Below, one piece after another: positions 527-55,734 of a DNA stretch of 64,000 bases. A program made the translations under genes and the position numbers. Below the pieces are notes generated by a model, which saw nothing but the letters and a program-made list of their open reading frames with translations, was not told the origin of the DNA and ran no database searches. The stretch is taken from positions 1,232,530 to 1,296,529 of the forward strand of contig BCIN01000007.1 in NCBI GenBank assembly GCA_039545335.1. Direction: 5' to 3'. This DNA is from Kondoa subrosea. Lineage: Eukaryota. How positions within the stretch are numbered: the stretch's first letter is position 1; every line of letters begins with the position of its first letter.

Positions 527-3500
527 ATGAGTGGACATCGCCAAAGAAGAAGCTACCCGTCCCAGGATGGCTTGGATGAAATATCTGGTCAGGCACCTTT
601 AGTAGGCAACAAGGCCAAGGCAGCAACGGGCGGTAGAGCAGGGGACAACTCCTACAGCGCGATCTTTGATTCCTACTCTGCGACTGGCCCAAATAAAGCA
701 ACAGCAGGGGCTAACTCTTCAGCGCTTCCACCTCGAACTACTTCAAATGCTCCGAAACCCTACGGCGGTTCACCTCAACTAGGTTCTCCAACACCTTATG
801 CTGAATCTGGTTTGTTATCACCTAAACTCAATTCATCACCTCGAATGGGAATAGGTGCATCAAATACTTCAAACCCTTATTGGGCTTCCCCAAATTCACC
901 ACAGCAAAGACAAGCCAATGCTTCGGGAGTAGGATTCTTGGAAACAATGCCGTCAAACGATTCTTTTGATGATCTAACAAACGAACATTCTTATGGTCAA
1001 ACCAAGAAACCTCATCCTTGGCAACATCAATCTAGACAATCTTTGACACCTTCAATGTCTGCTTCAAATGTTGGTCAGACTGATGCGAATGGAGAGAAAG
1101 ATTGGAAAACCCTGCAAGCTGCGAACGAGAAGTTGCTTTCGTCGAAGGAAAGATATGATGGACAGTTGCATCCTAGTATTCTGAAGAATCTAGGTCCGGA
1201 AGAGGATGATGACATGCAGTCAGTAGAGACCATACATCGTGATCACTATAAGTCTTGATACGCTTGATCTGTTGACAGCGATCCTGGACCATCTTTACCT
1301 AGAAAAGGCGCCGATCGATTGATTGTGGATACTAAGAAGATAGCTCAAGCATCCGGTTTCTCTACTCGAGGGTTTTGGAACGTCCTTGGTGTCGCTTTTC
1401 TCGCTTTGACTCTACTTTTCCTTTTCGCTGGTTTACCTTTATTGGATTGGGCAACAACCCATTCTTTAGGAATCACTTCCAACAAACAATTTGGATCTAC
1501 TTCAACTAACTCTACTGGTCAAAGAGGTGTGATTGATGGATCTAGCGGAATGATCGACAGCGATACTCCTAAAGGCGCTTATTCCAATAAAGATATTGAT
1601 GGGAATGATATGGTCTTGGTGTTCAGTGACGAGTTCAACTTAGATGGGCGATCATTCTAGTACGTCGCCAGTCTCGTTCTCGACTGAAGAAAGCTGACGA
1701 ATAGCAATAGTCCGGGAGATGATCCATTTTGGGAAGCTATGGATTTCTACTATCATGTCACTAACGATCTGGAAAGTGAGCGACATGCCACACTTGCTTT
1801 GTTACCGTGCTAATTGCCTCGAAAGTGTACAACCCTGATCAAGCCACAACGCAAGGCGGAAATCTCGTGCTGCAGATGAATAGAACCGATCCAGATCTGA
1901 ATGGTAATTTGAACTTCCGTTCGGGCATGCTTCAAAGTTGGAACAAGTTTTGCTTCACTGGCGGAAAGAGTGCGCTTTCTGACGTCCCCAGCGAATCGGG
2001 CTTGATTTCTAATGACCTTTGTGCAGTTGAGGCCAATGTCTCTTTACCTGGTACTTTCGATATTCCTGGGTTCTGGCCTGCTTTGTGGACTATGGGGAAC
2101 CTTGGTAGAGCTGGTTATGCTGCTTCGACAGATGGAACAGTACGTCTGTCTTTCTGCATTCTGTACGTGTAAAGCTAATTTCTTGTCAGTGGCCATACAG
2201 CTACGATAGCTGTGACTGGGGTGAGAAGTTTGAGCAGGAAGAGAGGCATGTTTTTGAAGTGTTGTTTTCGCAGGCGCATTGGCAAATCAAACGGATCCCC
2301 ACGACAACACGTTACCGCTTGCAGCGCACGTGAACGGAGATCCAGTCAATCAAGGCGAATTGTCTTTCTTACCTGGTCAAAAGCTTTCTGCTTGCACGTG
2401 TCCTGGTGAAGAGTCAGTTCAAACGTTCTCGTGTGCTTAAGCTTCGGCTTATGGTGTTCTCGTTCCTGACAGTCATCCTGGTCCGATCGTGAATGGTCGA
2501 TTCAAAGGCAGAGCTGCGCCTGAAATTGATGCAGTGAGTTCTTTTATCTCTCAAAATGGGCTCATACTTAATGTTTTGTAAACAGCTGGAAGCTATGACC
2601 CATCGCGTGACTGGAGGAGAGTCGTCACAAAGGTCGGTCCTCGAGTGACGAGATCGTGCATTCACTTATCAAGGCCTTGTTTACATAGTTTGCAAGTTGC
2701 ACCTTTCGATGCAGCTTATACTGTAAGACCCCGAGTACTGATTGAGAAGCCTGGCGCTCATGTATCATACTAGATCGACAACATTACCAGTGGATATACT
2801 CAATTCTACCAAGAGTCCGGATTTCAAACTGTACTCAATCCGTACCAAGGCGCTGTTTATCAGCAAGCTGTCTCTGGTCTTTCTCGCGTGCCCAACACTG
2901 CCTTCGATGGCGGATGGATGACTGTTGGTTTCGAGTGTAAGTAATTTTTCTCCATATAAAAAAGGGTTGCGCTGAGAAGTTTATAGACACGCCTTCCGAC
3001 CAAGGCGATGGTCAGATCACTTGGTACATGGACGGCAAGCCAACATGGACCGTCAGAGAAGGAGCTGTCGGACCCAACGCGGCGGTCAACATTTCTCAGC
3101 GGTAAGTGAATGATCTATCTGGCAACTCTGATTGCTTATGATTGATTCAGATTGATACCTAACGAGCCTATGTACATCATTATGAATTTTGGAATGTCAC
3201 CAGGCTTCGGTGGTAAGTCAAGAGCCTCTTGAGTTATAGCTCCGTCAGCTCACTTGCCTGCTTAGAGGTCGACCTAGCCAACTTGGTATGTCTCTATCGC
3301 TCACGAGAGGCTCATGTCTGATTCTCAATCCGCTCAGCCGTTTCCTTCGGAGTCAGTAGAATCGATCTTTTGAGGGTTTTTGGCTGATTCCTAGCTTGAT
3401 AGATACAAGATTGATTACGTGCGAGTGTGGCAGAAAGACAGTCAGGTCGATTATGGTTGCGACGGGGCTAAACAGGGCTATCGTATGTCAAGAGCCTCTT

Positions 3501-3706
3501 CGGTAGCAATTCCGTTGGCTCATAGCTATGCTTCTTTACTGCTACAGCTACATCGGACTATATTCAGGACCATCTTGAAGGTGCCAATCTTGTCCTGTGC
3601 CGCGATTTTCTCTAATTTTCTGAAAGCTTATATGAACAAAAACCGAACATTGTGGTCAGACTTAGGGTGGGAGAAGCCAAAGAACTCACTGCTAGGCCAG
3701 TGCTAG
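527..3706 (+). CDS. KRE6: Beta-1,6-glucan synthesis-associated GH16 protein (KRE6/SKN1 family), multi-exon
   Basis: Low-complexity N-terminus, then one TM helix (GFWNVLGVAFLALTLLFLFAGLPLL). Conserved motifs LVFSDEFN, SGMLQSWNKFCFTGG and GFWPALWTMGNLGRAGY. The spliced catalytic motif GRAAPEIDALE lies at ~2507-2590. C-terminus WEKPKNSLLGQC*. Confidence 0.93.
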
Positions 3707-30178: not shown

Positions 30179-33100
30179 TCAAATCTGCATGGTTTGCATA
30201 CTATCCCATGTCGTTTTACCGACTTCTCGTTTGATCGTATCGGACCATCGAGTATTCTTGCTGGCTGCTCCGCGCAGATGATAAGCGCAGAAGGTCCACA
30301 AGGCTGGATTGCGCTTCTCTGTGACTTTCTGTTGGACCACCGCTGCCAAGTAAGAGCCGAGCATAGTATCGTTCTCTTCTATTGGCATCTCTGACAGGGT
30401 AATATCGACCGGAAAAGGTGTTTCGATAGTTCTCAGCAGGTGTTCATGATCGACGAAAAGCAAGCGACGGAAATCGAGTGGAAAATCTTTGGTATTCAGG
30501 ACTGGCGGAAGCAGAAGTGCGCTGAAAACTGGATGACCTAACGACGTTGAATCGTACAGACCCAGGAAATCAGCGTATAGTTGATAAAATTGAGGTGTAT
30601 TCATCGGATCGTTGTCTTTCCTTGTTGGCAAGTTATTACAGAGATCAAGCAGATGTGCAGAATACTTCGTCAGCACCGGATCTCTGAACACTGCTTCTTC
30701 TGACGAGACCATTCGAGCATCCACTTGTTCCAGCAAGAAAATGTTCATGAGCTGCAGTCGAACTTGATTTGCAGATGGCAGTGCTTGGAGGTAGAATGTC
30801 TTCTGCTTCCCGGCTGATGCAATAGATCAGGAGAGCCGTCTCATCTCACTCAAAACACAACTCACCTTCTGACAGCTTTTCAATGATAAGCAATAACGTC
30901 CGTAAACCAGCTACTACGATTTCCACCTCGCCGAAGTTCCATGTTTCTGGTAGTGTGCGCAAGACTTTAGATTGAGCTGAATGTAGGAGTTCGTACAGCG
31001 GAAGACTGAGTGGCCAAGCTGGAGAAGAAGATTTGACGTTTGTTTTCAGTGATTCTATCTTACCTATTTCGGCAGGGGTTGAGATATAGCTTGCTGATGT
31101 GGATGTTGGGAAAGTTACAAAAGGAGTCAATATTTGAGCAATAGGTAACTGATTTGGCAGAGCAGGGAACAAATCGTTGAGAAGTTCCGATACCAATTTG
31201 CACGTGGAGGTAGTTTCGCATGACCCAGCAATGCTGACGATAAACAGCTTCGCACTAATTTGATCAGGAAGGTAAGGAAGAAGACAGATCATCAGGGCAA
31301 TCGATAGGGTTGTGATGGGTGTAGGCAAATTTTCAGCTTGATGTTCAAAGACATTCATCGCCATTGCCGTGTCCAACGGTTGCACGCCAAAGGCTTGACC
31401 AAAACTGAGATAGGCTAACAGGTCTTCTTCTCCGCCTTGCCCAGCCAACACCCTTTGCGCCAGCTTCTCGGTTTCTTGCGCAAGATCCAAATGTTGTGGC
31501 AGCTCGCAAAGCACGCCATAAGAAGCGCAACCCTTCTTCCACGCACTTAAACACAGCATACACTCTCTTCTCAAGTCTCCTTTCGTCTCAGGTAGCATGT
31601 CCAGTACTTTTTCTCCCCATTCGCTCATTTGGGTCCAAGAGATCGCATGATCCGGTGTAGTATCATGCGGAGCCATTGAAGCGTTTATCCAATTCCTTGT
31701 CAATCGGACCCAAGAGATAGCTATATCTTCTTCTTCTTCTTTTGAGGTGAAAGAATGCGAAAGATAAGTCGCCCAGGTTGATGCTAAAGTAGAACGATAT
31801 TGACATGCTAAACCATATTTAGCCAAATCGGCTAATAGATTACAAGTCTTGCTTGTTAGATCCAAGGCGAGGAAGTAATATGAAGTTGAAGATAAAGTCC
31901 AGTATGGGATAGCTAAGAAACGGGAAAAGACTTGTAGACTCCCGGATTCGATGATTGTTTGAGCTGTAGATCTTGAGTGATGTACTAAAAGAGATAAGAC
32001 GTCTATAATGTGCGGAAGAGGTAGTGAAGATTCATCCGAAGAAGGAGGCCAGGAAGTAATCAGGCAGAGTTGTTGCAATCTTTCTATCAGAAGGATATGT
32101 TCTGCCAGCTTATCGAGATCTGGGACATGCTTGAGGATAGTACATATGGATGCTAGATCAGACCTTGTCGATTGATCGGCTTCAAGCAGATTTGCCAGAG
32201 TCAAGAAAATGCCCGGTTTCAAATCTTGTAAAGTATGACTGAAGGTTGGTAAGAGAGAAGAGGCTGTAGCTGCTAGATTGATAGCAGCCGAACGTGTTGA
32301 TCTATGCGGACTGGCCATAAGCATCGAAACGACTTCCGCTAATTCTGTTGATATAGATTGAACTTCCTTCAACGAGGAATGTTTGGAGATGATCTCTTGA
32401 AGTAGTCGAAGAGCATATGAACGTTGCTGGGAGACTGACGAGCGGCTCATATTGAGAAGTGAAACAAGAGAGTAAGATCCAGCTTCCCTGGCGTTAAGGT
32501 GACCACTAGAAGTCTCTAGGCTGCTCCCGCCTGTTGTCAGATTACCTCGAGAGTCGAAAGATGGTCCAGAAGATTCAGGGTCGTGAGAATGAGAGTGTTC
32601 GTTCGACTGGGCATTTTGGCCTATCCATTTCACAGTCAACAGATAGCAAAAGATGACTACTAGCGAGCTTGCCTATAGTATCCTCTTCTTTTCCTTTACC
32701 TTTCGCCTTTCGTCTGCTCATCAAGAAAGCCAAGGTCTTTTCATCCAACATTTCTTTGATTTCCCTCTGCTGTTCCTCAATCTCTTGAGGTGACATCTGG
32801 GCTAGTCTTTCATCATTCTCTTGACCAAAATTATCCCCAGAGGACGCTTCCAAATCTCCGCTCCGAGCAGATGTCGATGGATGCGATGCAGGTTCAGGCG
32901 AAGTAGCTCTCTTTTTCGGTAAAGGGAATCCAGTAGCTTGCAAAGTAGATACCACAGGTCCAAGAGGTGCATGCGTAACAGATTCACGCTCTTGTATATC
33001 ACCCATCAAACCAGCTATAGTTTTCGCCTTCCGCGGTTCTTTAAGCTGTTGCCTTTCGAAATCTACAGAAAAGGACTTTGTTCCACTTTCTCCTCCTCCT

Positions 33101-39163: not shown

Positions 39164-41779
39164 TCAAGTCTTGTTCAGAGGAGCAACAGCGGTTTCCAAA
39201 TCTGCTTTTTCAATGTGATCTTCCTCCGATTTCTCATCCAGATGACCTTGGTTCTGTTCATGGCCGGTCATGCCTCTGATCTTGTAAGCAGGGAATTTGC
39301 GGGCAGGAACTCTGTTCTCGAACATCTCATCCAGATCTTCCAGCGTACGACCTAACACTCTTTAAGCATATCCAACTGAAGCAAAATGTAAAGGAATTTA
39401 CCTTGAGTCTCGGGCAAGTAGAGGATGAGCCAGATCAGCGTTACCAGATTTGGGCCAACCCAGACCTGTAACATACGCATTAGCTCGACGAGGTCAAACG
39501 AAGGGGAAAAACTCACCCAAGCGATCTTTCCACCCAGGTAGGAAGGCGAAGTAGGATTAATGAAGTACGGGGTAGTGAAAACAGTAAGCCACGCGAAGAC
39601 GAAGCCGATAGCCACTTCAAAAACGTAATTAGCACAGAAGAAGTCGAAGGAGATGAGTGAAGCAACGACTTACTGCTGAAACCAAATGTAACACTGCGCA
39701 ATCTATTTGATGGCATTTCTCCAGCGCAGACCCTGCAGCAGACGAGTGAGCGACGGATGACAAGGTACACTGATGATAAAGTACCATGCGAGAGGCCCGC
39801 AGGCGACTAAGAAAGCCAGTTCAGTATGCTCACACCTTATTGCGCGTGTCTACTCACTAGTATAGCCCCAATCGTAGAGACAGATGAGGGCAAGCAAAGC
39901 ACTACCAGTGGCATCGTTCTTCGGAGCGACAGTGACCAACAGAGCTACTAGGAAGATGCAGACAGTGGTTATACCTGTAACACTGGACTGAGCAATGGAC
40001 GTAGACGAGAGGCACAGCGCTCACCAAAGCCAGCAACGAGTAAAGTCTTCCTTCCTAGGTACCTAGCAAGGAACGGGGCCATGATGGCACCGCTACCCAG
40101 AGGGATGAATGACTAAACGAGACGTTGATTCTTCACTTACACCACTCCTACAGCTTTCAAAATTGTTGTGTTGGTGAAGGCGTCTGAAAAGGATGCAATG
40201 ATTAGAGTCTGAAAGGGAATACCATTAGACACCACTTACCTCCTTTGGTGCCGAGGACTTGGAAGAAGACAGTAGCGTATCCACTATTTTGATGGATCAG
40301 TTATGAAACGCTTGTGGACAAAGGTCCGAACTAACACAAGAACATTCACTGTTTTAATCGATCAGCTACGAAACGCTTGTGGACAAAGGTCCAAACTGAC
40401 AACCAGAAGCAGCGTGAAGAATGGCACAGCCAACACATAGACCAGTTCTTCTTAGATCTGTACCTCGGAACATATCCATGAAAGCCGATCCTTGCTTCAA
40501 CGAGTTTTCGTGAGCCACGGCATCCCTGATAGCTTTCATCTCCATTTCGATGAACCGGGGTTCGACTGATTTGCCTCGAAGGTTGACTAGAGCTTTCATT
40601 GCTTTCTCATCTTCTCCTCTGGCAGCCAACCATCTAGGACTTTCAGGCAGATACCAACTGAATAGGCAGAACCAGATCTTTTACGGCGTATTAGTACACA
40701 GAGGTAATGCGGAAGAGGAGACATACAGGCACTACATATAGAATGACCAGCTGTAGTTGGTAGGAGTGGCGCGTGAGATTCGCCTTGAAAGCTTGATTGA
40801 CGAGAGCTCCGACTAGACCGCCCAAGGAAACCATAGGCTGGAAGACGGAGACGATGGGGCCACGAAGATAGAAAGGAGTTGTTTCGCTGAAACATGGGAT
40901 GATTAGACACTCTAATGCTTCACAGCAATGAGATGATCACCTGATATATATGACAACCAGATTGACATATGCTCCGTTTGCAATCCCTAGCCTGAATTCT
41001 CGATCAGATCTTATAGCCTTCCTATGCTTATTCCGGGTAATGTTTACGCACATGAGCCTCGCAGGGAAAATGGGCCATTGTACAGTAACGAGTATTTGTA
41101 TAGTAATGGAAAAGAACGAGAGCAGAGAGGCAGCGATAAATCCACCTCGTCGACCGAACTAGCAAAAGCTTAGTCGGACAATTTTGCTTGAACACGTGTA
41201 GCTCACATATTTAGAGAAAGGCCCAAGAGAAAAACTTGCGATGATCAATCCCACTTGAAGAAGGGAAGTGATCAACTGTTGAAATGTAGTTTCAATTCCA
41301 TAACGGCGAGTTGCGGGATTGTATTCCCCAAAACTGGACAGATGTCTCAGTACGAGCGGATAGATGCCCTCGAACAGATCTTACACTCTCAAAAAGCCTT
41401 GCATAGCTTGGAGACCTAGATTATTACATATCAGCATTGTAATCTAGTATCGATTGGTAATGGCGCTCACCATTGATAATACCAGTATCAAAGCTGCGCT
41501 AATGAGCACGCGAGTACCCTTATACCAGTGTGGTGACTCACCCATCTACGCAGAAGAACAAAATCAAAATTATCAGCACGCTTCAATGCAGGAATGCAAG
41601 GCCAATTACATTGAAAGGTAGCAAAAGATACACCAGCTAAACCAAGTCGATCAGCCAGGAGATAGCGGAGCGCTCAAGAAAGACGCACCACACAAGAAGA
41701 AGATCCTCTTGTTCTCCCACAAGCTAGTAATAGGAATGCCTTCGACGACAACAGCAGAAGCGCCTCCACCGCCGACCAT
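39164..41779 (-). CDS. MFS sugar porter (general alpha-glucoside/hexose transporter-like), many exons
   Basis: YGFDTGIINGLQAM, FGRRGG, LPESPRWL, DMFRGTDLRRT, GEMPSNRLRS, YLPETQGRTLEDLDEMFE. Confidence 0.93.
40284..40400 (-). repeat. Direct repeat formed by two near-identical 52-nt introns separated by a 13-nt exon
   Basis: 40349-40400 and 40284-40335 align without gaps at 45/52 positions. Confidence 0.92.
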
Positions 41780-44026: not shown

Positions 44027-46610
44027 CTACAAGTGTCCATCTGCCGCGTCGATCCAGGTATTGTTACTCGTAATCCATGTCGCCTGCGATGAGAGAAGAC
44101 TGATTAGCTTGATGTACAGCGACTAAGGGGAAAGCAACTACTGGTTTGGTATAGTCCCCTGAGGTTCCATCTTTGGTCTGTAGATAGTTTTGCTCAACCT
44201 TCAGCCGTCCATAAAGCAAGTTTGACTTACATATGCTAATCTGAAGTAATGCGTAACATTCGTCCACATGCCGTCAACAGTGTAGTTGTTGTCTGTGCCA
44301 GTCCAGGTTTGGACATCGTCAACCACTGACAATGCGTTTAGCCAGAAAAACAAGCTCAGATGGCGAAAACTCACAAAGCGAAAACCCATTCCAGCTATTC
44401 TGCAGATCCGTGGGTATGGGCTGCCAATTTATGCCAATAGTAGGATTGAATGTAGTGTTAGTAGTGAGCCATTCTGGTAAGTCGGAACCAAGTTGAGCAT
44501 CTCTTCGTAGTTCGGCTGGCGTTTGCAATATCGAATCATAACCCCAGACAGCTAGCCAAACATCAGCTAGGGTACAAAATCGATGTATAATAGCTTACCG
44601 ATGCCATTGATCATTATGCCTAGAAGTAAACCATGCAGAATTAAGCTGATTCGAGTAGGTGGACGAGTAAGAGGTAGAGCAATCATGCCAAAGATGTAGT
44701 GATGCCTGTCGTTGAGGTCTGAGCGAAGGCCCGGGGAGAGTACTTCACACATACAATCTTAGTTCTAGACCAGGCAAGGCAGTCAATAGCCCAATGGTTC
44801 CTGCTCCGAGAGCATACCTTCAAGACTATTTAGCTAATAGCATATTAGTACAGACACACGTACCAGCCGATATATCTAGGTAACAAGCCAGCTTTCCTGA
44901 ATACTCTGAATTGATTGACCGCAATAGCAACCACAATGAGCGCTATGATGATGACCGCTATCAATCCGCCTGGTTGTCGCTTTATGTCTGAAGGTGTTAG
45001 TCGATCCACAGGGATCCAACTTTCGAGCGTCACATCCATTACTGTGACATCCAGTTCAGGAACTAGCTACCCAATTTGATCAAGAAGCAAACTCCCATAT
45101 CCCGACCCAAAATGGACCTAGAAATAGAATCGATCGTTCGAGAGTGAGAAGCGAAAAATGAGGTAGAAGATAGCGACTTGATAAACGCCCAATCACGTAA
45201 AGAACAAAGAGAGTAGGGAGGAAAGCACCGAAGCCATTTGATATATCCGCTATTGAAGCTTTAATTCGCTTGTTTCATATAAGGAAGAGAACTGTCTTAC
45301 GAGGACTCTTCGTCAGTACGATTTGCCAGAAACCCCTATAACACAAAGTCAGCTACTTAAATGCAATAAAGCAAACACGCATACGCTAAGCATGAGACCC
45401 AGAAGAAAAGTGAAGGTGTAGGTAGTAGTAAAAGAGAGAAGAAGAAAAGCATAGAAGCTTGAAACGCTAAAATAGGCCACTTGAGATCTTTGCAGTGTTT
45501 GCCCGGCGTGGATTCAAGAACATAAGAGCTAGGGAAGTAACTATCGAAGGGGAGTGACTTGATACCATTCTGATCGAGACCTTCGAAATTTGAGAAGCCG
45601 CCAATTTGTTTAGCAACAGCGCATCCTCCCCACTAATCACACAATTAGCAATGTTAAAGCCATTAAGCGATTACCTACGAGTGTTGAGACAAGATTCTGC
45701 TGCACTGCCGCGGCGCATAGCCAAGTATCCGCTCGATAGGTTTTCGCTGAGTCGCCTCCGCCTACTAGAACAGGTCTGAAATTGATGATTTGACTACCTA
45801 TAACACGAGGATTCCCAAGCTTGATGATTGGTTCAGCACCACAGCGGAAGGCGAGAGTCGAATTCGCAAAGGGTTTACAGCTTTCTCCATCTAGCCCCTA
45901 TGGTAGTCAAGAAGTATAAACATGAGCGCACGGAGTTGCTACTGAAGAGGCTCTTGACATACACATTCATCGTTGGGAGACCAGAATGATGCTTGTTTCG
46001 AAATAATCTGTGGTCTAGGTAGACCGTAAGCATGAGTCTCGACGATCAGGCGGACAGCTTACTCTCCAGCACTCGTTGAAGCATTGAACCAGCTCTCATT
46101 AACCAGCAAAGCCGTGCCGACTATCCAAAGCGCAATATAAATAGCCCATACGAGCCCTAAAGGTCTAAAGATTCTTCTCAGCCGTCTATTGAGTGTTTTC
46201 TCCAAGGCAACTTCTCGCTTGAAAGATCGGGGCCGAACATCTTCTGCTGGAATTGGACCTTTGAAGTATCTCTCGACTTTCGCTATAACCTTATTTTGTC
46301 TCTTTGCTCGTAACCATCGAAGAAGAGCTGAATTATACAAGAGAGCAGCAGGCATAAGCGCAGGCGAGGCAGTGTCCAAGTCTTTCAAGTCGTTGTTGTC
46401 TTCTTTCGGTTCTCTTCTATCTTGATGCAGAGGAGAAACGGATGCAGCGGCTTCTAAGTCATCTTTACTATCAGATGAAGTAGACAGGTCTTGCAGAGTG
46501 AATTCGGATGTTTGTCTCTTCGGTATTGGCAATGCAGACAGAGGTTGAATCTCAGACGTTGAGTCCACCGGCGAAGAAGCAGGATATTGAGTTTCTATGT
46601 TGTTAGACAT
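44027..46610 (-). CDS. LCCL domain-containing membrane protein, multi-exon
   Basis: TM helix, then GLDGESCKPF..FRC and the LCCL core TYRADTWLCAAAVQ...GGCAV..FDSYFPSS. Later TM block DRLTPSDIKRQPGGLIAVIII. C-terminal YFRLAY..GTSGDYTK. Confidence 0.8.
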
Positions 46611-53690: not shown

Positions 53691-55734
53691 TCACTTGGTG
53701 AAAACCGATATCACATCCAGATCCCGTACTTTATGCGTCAGACCCACTTTGATTGGTTCGGGATTGAATCTATACTGAAATCAGATGAAGTTCTCTCTCA
53801 TAAGCTTGATCTCTCACTTGCTACTCTGACCATACACCAACGCGTAAGCGAAATGACTAACGAGCGATCGATGAATCGCATGAGCACACTGTTCGATCGT
53901 TGCCCCCGTTCGAACGACGACAGGATCTTCCAAATCAGGTCTTCGTGCTCGTTTCTTCGTGTAGATCCGCAACAAGCCAAGTTCTTGCCAGATTCGTTCT
54001 AGTATACTTCCTTCACCAGTAATATTGAGATCCAGAGCGCAGGAGATGACCACTGTATTGGGTTCTCGAGCGAGTTTGTCTACCAATTCCATTGATATCG
54101 CGTCGACTGTCACATAATTTGTGGTTAGAGGTGATGCAAAGGTGAGGAGAATGGAAAACCTACTTTTGTTGTATACGTACAGAACTATGGCAGTCAAAGA
54201 AGCGTAAACATGAGCGAACAGAAGTTGCTACTGAGGAAGCTCTTGACTTACGCTTAATGTACTTTCGATTACCTATTAGAACATCCAAGAACTGGTCTAC
54301 TGTGATGTCTTCGCGGATCATGACATCGCAATCTTTCGAATTATCAGCAAGGGCGCTCAATTCACGGTGAAGGCTTACTCTGTGGGACCATATATCAGCC
54401 TTCTCAGGTCTAGGTATAAGACGATCTAGAAGCTTACATGGATTTTATACTGCTGTAGAATAGATCGTATTGTTCGCTCGTCAATGTGATTGACTATGTG
54501 TACTCTTCAGTCGGCACCGAGCTTCGTGCGCATATAACGTACGAGTAACCGTCGCATTTATTGCTTTTAGAGAATTTTAGCGAACAGAATATAGCTTGTA
54601 CCGATGCGACTTACTAACTCCTCCTCCGGTCTTCTGTTTGAAGAGAATGTCTGGTTTCTTTTGGTTGATCCGCACGCCTACGGCTTCAAGTTCAATTTCA
54701 AGTAGACGTTTTTGCTGTTGCGCTTTCGTTGGATCGAGCATCATCTGGCAATCTTTATCAGCCCCTTCGAGTATTACGACTGCTGAGTGACCTACGAGAA
54801 TCAGGTCGGCCGTCTTGACTACTGCCACGACTTGTCGACCTCTTCCGCGACCTTGTGAAGCTCCCTGTCGAGTGTATCACAACTCTTCATGAGGTTAGGC
54901 TCAATGATGCGAGGTGACACCGACCTCTAGAATACCAGGCAGATCAAGTAACTGAATTCGAGCGCCCTCAATTTCCAGCACACCAGGAATTGCTGTCAAA
55001 GTGCTACACACGAAATCGTCAGTCCAAGGTGAGGGTAACATCGGATCTGCGCGGCATACGTATACTCATAAGCCGCTATTTCACTCTTAGTCTTCGTTAC
55101 TTTAGAAAGGAAAGTTGATTTGCCAGTTGAGGGGAAGCCTGCCAGCGAGTTTCAGTAAGATAGAGTTTCAAGCGAAATCGAGTCCGATAGACCCGCAGTA
55201 CTCACCTAGCAAGCACACTCGAGCATCTCCACTCTAGCAGAAGTTCAGTTTTAGGCAGAACAAGCTTCATTGACGGCTAATGCGAACCTTCATGACATCA
55301 AAACCTGTTTACAACTTGAGAATAGGTCTACTAGTGGAATGACTAGCTTACCTTCTCCCGCTGGTCCTTTCTTCGCAGGTTCCAGTAGCTGAGCTCGATA
55401 TTTCGCGAGCTTGGCTTTCAGCAGACCCAGATGATACCTAAGTAAATGTGATCTTCAGCTTTCGGATCGAGATACCTGTAGAGCTACGCACTCCGTTGCC
55501 TTGTTCTGCATATGTCACACAAACATCAGATCTGGTCGAACACAGCTCTTGAACTGTTTTCACCTTCTGCGTCCGCCTCTATTCTCATTGTATTAGCTAT
55601 GTAGAAGTCTACGGTATGATCTAGCTTGCCATCTCCTCCTCCTGAGCAATTGAACATTTCAGCAAGATTTCCTGACACTTGCTCGCGCCGAAGCGACGAC
55701 GCACAATCTCAGCAATCTTCTCTACGATAGCCAT
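53691..55734 (-). CDS. RBG2: Developmentally regulated GTPase DRG2/Rbg2, many exons
   Basis: [88 protein letters not shown]-terminal TGS domain. The N-terminus resembles DRG2 more than DRG1. Confidence 0.92.

Follow-up and report, generated by a model that had tools for sequence, protein, structure and literature searches.

Nearly identical spliceosomal introns in fungi have been divided into three groups, i.e., same-gene intron duplications (SGD), low-copy introns, and introner-like elements (Collemare, van der Burgt and de Wit 2013; PMC3609843). According to that survey, 82 SGD introns were detected in 11 of 24 fungal species. They are described there as having ordinary length and folding energy, half of them are segmental, and for the non-segmental ones the authors suggested transposition within the same transcript. 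Introner-like elements are described as spread over unrelated genes, with copy numbers from tens to hundreds, about twice the regular intron length, and predicted stable folds, and their copies degenerate in sequence and length (PMC3609843, PMC4457414, PMC9860276). The sister (stw)introns and cropped sister introns of the Hypoxylaceae are reported to be internally symmetrical, with long terminal inverted repeats and no flank similarity, and double-strand break repair is discussed as their route (PMC8469720). In the tandem exon duplication model, a new intron consists of duplicated exon sequence around AG/GT and its size equals that of the duplication (PMC2891723). Here we analyzed a 64,000-nt stretch of Kondoa subrosea DNA (hereafter, the window; assembly GCA_039545335.1, contig BCIN01000007.1, positions 1,232,530 to 1,296,529 of the forward strand), in which two neighboring predicted introns of a sugar porter gene closely resemble each other and flank a 13-nt micro-exon. 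We consider it probable that this twin pair is a non-segmental SGD, in which one 52-nt intron was copied exactly within the gene.

Both twins are encoded on the minus strand (coordinates are those of the window). Twin A (intron 10, 40349..40400, phase 1) starts with GTCAGT and ends with CAG, and twin B (intron 11, 40284..40335, phase 2) starts with GTTAGT and ends with TAG; each is 52 nt long and carries a branch-like CTGAT 13 nt from its 3' end. They align without gaps at 45/52 identical positions (87%), the seven mismatches being at intron positions 3, 8, 32, 35, 42, 45, and 50 (six transitions and one G/C transversion). The coordinates, lengths, sequences, gapless alignment, and mismatch counts given in an earlier note on this DNA were all re-derived exactly. 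That note did not mention that 6 flanking nt are also similar, nor that another intron family with several copies is present in the window. A direct-repeat search of the window and a self-blast both revealed the full repeat, which is a 58-nt direct repeat with 86% identity and a spacing of 65 nt. Its first copy comprises an exon T, intron A, and exon TGAAT (40344..40401), and its second copy an exon T, intron B, and exon TGGAT (40279..40336), so that the similarity takes in the last nucleotide of the upstream exon and the first 5 nt (4/5 identical) of the downstream exon. The chance of a flank match of 1 nt plus at least 4/5 nt is about 0.004, a post hoc figure computed after the repeat had been seen. 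The insertion is exact, and its boundaries cannot be shifted by even one base; thus there is no target-site duplication. The exon junctions read GTT|TGA and TGT|TGG, not AG|GT.

The similarity of A and B is far beyond chance, and the two are homologous. When A was searched against the window using blastn-short, B was retrieved at E = 5.7e-10 and the next match was an 11-mer (E = 0.51). The window self-blast gave only three non-self matches, the twin pair among them (58-nt repeat, E 3.9e-12). Among the 171 pairs formed by the 19 introns of the gene, A/B had 87% identity, whereas the remaining 170 averaged 53.3% (sd 3.8, maximum 65%), and the highest identity reached in 2000 shuffles of B with the splice ends kept was 65.5%. 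The 340 intron-like GT..AG candidates of the window gave 57,537 pairs, with a score of 31.0 for A/B against a background of 5.8 +/- 1.1. Neither blastn-short nor nhmmer (next match E 0.77) found a third copy of the twin intron in the 64 kb. Exact-pattern scans of a prokaryote genome collection returned, as expected, 0 matches for the 23-nt identical core of the twins and 0 for the core of the second intron family, and are not informative here. Rfam and tRNA scans of the window gave no matches, so neither the twins nor that family are known RNA genes.

Several features bear on the descent of the pair. At position +3 of the 5' splice site both twins have a pyrimidine (C in A, T in B), and a purine is found there in 17/17 other introns of the gene and 4/4 members of the second family. 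This shared oddity points to the descent of the whole unit from one intron. The divergence of A and B is 0.148 (Jukes-Cantor) or 0.154 (Kimura two-parameter) substitutions per site. Their length equals the median of the gene's 19 introns, and their predicted folds are unremarkable, with -9.8 and -6.7 kcal/mol for the two copies (z -1.01 and -0.89; equalled or bettered by 34 and 36 of 200 shuffles, respectively). In both twins, intron positions 1–7 are predicted to pair with positions 34–40 in the branch-site region, and these pairs are preserved despite the differences at positions 3 (C/U) and 35 (G/A), which are two of the seven. The pairing may be a by-product of the splice signals, and RNA structure as a driver of copying was dropped given the fold z of about -1 despite the preserved pairs. 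The copies agree without interruption over 23 nt at most, which is not significant (P = 0.063), and the idea of a conserved core was likewise abandoned. The prevalence of transitions was also considered as a mark of repeat-induced point mutation and dismissed, by reasoning only, since 6/7 is within the ordinary and such a repeat is very short.

The gene itself (39164..41779, minus strand, ATG to stop) was modeled by dynamic-programming spliced alignment against P0001, the nearest protein found. The model has 20 coding exons separated by 19 GT..AG introns of 48–64 nt, and an open frame of 1614 nt encoding 538 aa. Its translation matches P0001 at 472/539 residues (88%) and P0002 with 81% identity. 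Exon 10 alone hits the Pfam family Sugar_tr (PF00083) with E 2.9e-9 and 36.7 bits (gathering cutoff 22.3), and P0004, P0005, and P0006 share 37–38% identity over about 490–520 residues. P0005 and P0006 are named general substrate transporter at NCBI and P0004 is labeled major facilitator superfamily in UniRef. By its sequence the host gene is a member of the sugar porter family, and the twins occupy its introns 10 and 11, with PF00083 on exon 10, in accordance with the earlier placement of the segments as introns in a sugar porter. Exon 10 (277 nt, 40401..40677, minus strand) ends with ...HAASG and the first base of a Leu codon. Exon 11, the micro-exon (13 nt, 40336..40348, minus strand), supplies the remainder of this Leu, then Asn, Val, Leu, and two bases of Val, and exon 12 (44 nt, 40240..40283, minus strand) starts with the final Val base followed by GYATVFF....

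Removal of both segments gives the spliced product HAASGLNVLVGYATVFF, as the earlier note had stated, and this product is identical to P0001 as encoded on an intronless contig (L001, see below) of a relative. The spliced stretch ...CAILHAASGLNVLVGYATVFFQV... is identical to P0001, P0002, P0014, and P0016 over that stretch, and all ten homologues compared, down to 37% identity, have the same ...SG(L/I/V)xxxx(G/A)Y... spacing with no indel across the site. Retention of A would lead to a stop at codon 311 and retention of B to one at codon 321, and skipping of the micro-exon, with the 5' splice site of A used together with the 3' splice site of B, would give a stop at codon 323. Given the GT/CTGAT/AG signals, the restored conserved protein, the absence of indels in homologues, and the stops upon retention or skipping, both A and B are predicted to be spliced. 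The requirement of the 13-nt exon for the reading frame and for the conserved spacing is supported by the same comparisons. A protein search for exon-bounded open reading frame (ORF) pieces of relatives reading from exon 10 into intron A gave only P0010, a 48%-identical uninterrupted homologue.

A metagenome scan returned a single locus, a 1985-nt contig (L001) that encodes P0001 in an uninterrupted 1614-nt frame and reads GLNVLVGY across both intron sites. Compared with the spliced coding sequence (CDS) of the window, L001 has 72% nucleotide identity, and third codon positions are about 43–45% identical. The 5' leader of L001 aligns to the region upstream of the window gene but lacks a 52-nt GT..AG segment (41832-41781); L001 therefore looks as expected of a spliced message. 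The micro-exon is identical to L001 at 13/13 positions, within a 17-nt identical run that covers the exon 10/11/12 junctions (mRNA positions 897–914). This run ties for second longest in the CDS, which contains three identical runs of at least 17 nt. The 22-nt exon 16 also lies under long runs identical to L001. A general excess of synonymous conservation near all exon junctions was considered and dropped (0.44 vs 0.43).

Taken as an SGD, the pair would go back to a single 52-nt spliceosomal intron, of which a copy with precise GT and AG termini was placed at another site of the gene, 13 nt from the first. No coding bases would have been gained or lost, and both copies would now be spliced out to leave the 13-nt micro-exon; about 0.15 substitutions per site would have accumulated between them since. 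If introns evolve neutrally, the copy event should be younger than the split from the nearest relative, represented by L001, and indeed much younger, because A and B differ at 0.15 per site whereas third codon positions are near saturation (45% identical). A recent copy under neutral evolution predicts that this relative lacks one of the two introns. The precise copying of one intron had been proposed before, and the exact boundaries and the unchanged exon length make it the best reading here also.

As in the non-segmental SGD introns described in the fungal survey (PMC3609843), the two are near-identical by BlastN, have ordinary length and folding energy, and lack a duplication of the flanking exon sequence. 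Both are introns of one gene (10 and 11), and within the 64-kb window no other copy was found. What sets the pair apart is that the copies are immediate neighbors with only a 13-nt exon between them and a flank match of 1 + 5 nt. The passages of the survey considered here contain no description that we saw of the spacing or flank microhomology of the published cases, and our literature searches, with supplementary tables outside their scope, found no description of two intron copies flanking a micro-exon. The pair resembles the introner-like elements described for Dothideomycetes and other Pezizomycotina in being intron-exact, seamless in the exon, and free of a target-site duplication, but it has neither the extra length nor the stable fold reported for these elements, nor a further copy in the window. 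The earlier suggestion of an introner-like gain thus fits poorly with a pair of regular length, no unusual fold, and no additional copy nearby. With the Hypoxylaceae sister introns, as they are described (PMC8469720), it shares the low-copy seamless proliferation in fungi and the lack of target-site duplications, but it has no terminal inverted repeat and does have flank similarity. In the tandem exon duplication model, as here, a local DNA duplication gives a new intron and leaves the message unchanged (PMC2891723), whereas in the twin pair a pre-existing intron was duplicated, the spacing is 65 nt with 52 nt inserted, and the junctions are not AG/GT. The Drosophila work treated such close intron spacing as very unlikely (PMC2891723).

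Three further candidates were rejected. A DNA-transposon-type introner is at odds with the lack of a target-site duplication, and the 5' end of the twins pairs with positions 34–40, not with the 3' end. A proto-splice-site tandem duplication does not account for a spacing of 65 with 52 nt inserted, for the lack of AG|GT junctions, or for a duplicated unit that is an intron. A stwintron was set aside as the two units are adjacent and not nested, each having a complete set of GT, branch-like motif, and AG, and 13 coding nt required by the frame lie between them.

The second intron family, about 65 nt in length, was detected by the window self-blast and a profile search. Its three full copies are in a SKN1/KRE6-like gene (3483-3547, plus strand), in a gene for a Cys-rich product (45898-45962, minus strand), and in a DRG-type GTPase gene (54185-54251, minus strand). 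A shortened and diverged copy of 53 nt (3213-3265, plus strand; E 7e-6) is also located in the SKN1/KRE6-like gene. The full copies are 79–85% identical to each other, the similarity runs from GT to AG with unrelated flanks, and the fold z-scores range from -1.1 to -1.8. Pfam searches identified PF03935 in the SKN1/KRE6-like host (E 7e-31), and TGS (E 1e-9) in the GTPase host, along with MMR_HSR1_Xtn at 30.6 bits, below its gathering score of 35.2. By its sequences this family resembles low-copy or introner-like introns, and it fits the class of introner-like elements, as published, better than the twin pair does. As judged from sequence, it shows that introns of this genome have been copied with exact ends into genes unrelated to each other.

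This family bears directly on an alternative, in which A and B are independent insertions of a dispersed multi-copy family, introner-like or low-copy, whose other members lie outside the 64 kb. The genome evidently multiplies introns, with four copies of the ~65-nt family in the window and two of these in one SKN1/KRE6-like gene; the 79–85% identity of that family resembles the 87% of the pair. In addition, genes with two gained introner-like elements have been reported (PMC4457414), and the sugar porter is unusually intron-dense (19 introns in 1614 nt). However, the window has four copies of the ~65-nt family but no third twin copy (nhmmer next E 0.77), and the twins have the gene's median length and unremarkable folds, whereas the published elements are described as longer and stably folded by prediction (PMC3609843). 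Two independent insertions 13 nt apart with matching flanks of 1 + 5 nt would also be a large coincidence, and we regard this explanation as unlikely. Somewhat less likely still is that both intron positions are old and that their similarity stems from later gene conversion or sequence replacement, as the earlier note had considered in proposing two old homogenised introns. Over the micro-exon and its edges L001 matches at 17/17 positions, against a third-position identity of about 0.43–0.45, which hints at constraint in both lineages, and very close introns are tolerated elsewhere in the gene, where a 4-nt exon lies at 41545-41542; the run over the micro-exon is not unique, though, as three runs of this length or longer occur in the CDS. 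Conversion needs prior homology, and unrelated introns would offer only the 1 + 5 nt of flank, which leaves nothing else to start recombination and makes the proposal mechanistically weak. The equal 52-nt length and the unusual pyrimidine at +3 in both twins speak for descent of the entire unit from one ancestor, and the seven differences are spread along its length with no recent tract (23-nt core, P = 0.063).

If a segment of 65 nt (the intron with 13 nt of exon) had been duplicated in tandem and a separate 13-nt deletion had then restored the frame, the 65-nt spacing of the copies would be explained, and the 13 nt after A and after B share 7/13 positions, each then followed by GT. About half of the published same-gene duplicates are described as segmental (PMC3609843). 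This scenario nevertheless needs two events with an intermediate that is frame-shifted unless the outer splice sites were used, and the micro-exon and its edges are identical to L001 with no trace of a duplicated exon piece and no indel in homologues. We therefore consider it very improbable. The earlier note had likewise judged a simple tandem duplication unlikely because no exon sequence was added, and this argument holds, since a 65-nt duplication would add 13 coding bases. An assembly artefact, or segments that are not introns but part of a pseudogene, is the explanation to which we give the least weight, close to none. The intron status in this organism does rest on sequence inference, but the copies differ at seven sites and the spliced frame is open for 538 codons with 88% identity to P0001. 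Collapse or artificial doubling of A/B is unlikely because uninterrupted identity between the copies never exceeds 23 bases. The 901-nt stretch with A and B had 0 differences in two re-assemblies, which were runs of one sample, possibly the source, and hence not independent.

A same-gene duplication, which we favor, has to be held against several points. Copies in unrelated genes may exist beyond the 64-kb window, and this same window carries a dispersed intron family with two members in one gene. The 17-nt run identical to L001 could reflect constraint on the micro-exon in both lineages, and thus an older micro-exon. L001 may also derive from an intron-poor gene, as it proves the reading frame and not the introns of the relative. 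The splicing of A and B in this organism is a prediction, albeit a strong one, and the probability of the flank similarity was obtained post hoc. Copying may have gone either from A to B or from B to A.

Given a copy event, there is about an even chance that it took the form of a microhomology-guided local DNA copy, by template switching during replication or break repair. DNA-level copying is suggested because the repeated unit is 58 nt and not 52, with an exon T at its start and TGAAT/TGGAT at its end at both sites. A nascent strand would have switched template between the short matches T and TGRAT, 13 exon nt apart, an outcome that would be exon-neutral by construction, with selection removing other outcomes. 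This route is weakened by the ~65-nt family, whose four copies clearly show that introns of this genome can be copied with exact ends and with no similarity of their flanks. A close second, held with somewhat lower confidence, is that the excised intron was reverse-spliced into a nearby position of its own transcript, with reverse transcription and recombination as the later steps; this route accounts for the exact ends and the proximity but gives no reason for the flank match. Some other route would come as a mild surprise.

The sugar porter gene has further unusual features. Its exon 3 is only 4 nt long (ATGG, 41542-41545, minus strand) and is located between introns of 64 and 48 nt that are not alike; it is required to read ...FQYGFDTG... 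as in P0001. The 52-nt GT..AG segment 41781-41832 (minus strand), which ends 2 nt before the ATG, is probably a 5'-UTR (untranslated region) intron and would be the 20th intron of the gene, since the homologous 5' leader of L001 is without it. An nhmmer search of the window with the profile of the pair detected no similarity of this candidate to the twins. Intron density is uneven in the window, with 19 introns in 1614 coding nt of the sugar porter and a 608-codon uninterrupted frame in the neighboring RPAP1-like gene (30846-32672, minus strand), for which the matches found to the 608-aa exon were 49–50% identical relatives. Lastly, ORF pieces from P0011–P0015 (the P0001 cluster; contigs of relatives, one of 63.9 kb) are 75–78% identical to the model and cover its residues 408–485. 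They are uninterrupted across the positions of window introns 17, 18, and 19, and P0015 has an unrelated 7-residue start directly before ...GFSM..., as though the end of an intron lay about three codons away from window intron 17. On these grounds, intron positions seem to vary among close sugar porter homologues.

The twin pair had been put forward as a candidate for an undescribed process. It probably belongs to an already published class, as near-identical introns of the same gene are described for fungi (PMC3609843), and it reveals no new kind of process; of specialist interest are the 13-nt spacing with matching flanks and the co-occurring ~65-nt intron family. Because 64 kb hold a four-copy family in three genes plus the twin pair, at roughly 80–87% identity, a more speculative reading is that this unannotated genome of ~19 Mb has, or had until recently, an unrecognised intron-copying activity and that the pair is an intermediate of 'intron sliding by copy-then-loss', although we doubt this more than we believe it. 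Were it true, naive scaling would give hundreds of copies genome-wide, and an intron would be copied a few bases away by exon microhomology, after which the loss of either copy would mimic a 13-nt move.

Few recently copied spliceosomal introns are still recognisable as copies, and they are the main direct evidence on the origin of new introns. This pair is unusually clean in that respect, with exact boundaries, an unchanged exon, and parent and daughter sites 13 nt apart. If more pairs of the same genome were compared, matching exon flanks could separate a DNA-templated from an RNA route. Introns coexist 13 nt apart here and 4 nt apart elsewhere in the gene, which provides a concrete intermediate for apparent intron sliding.

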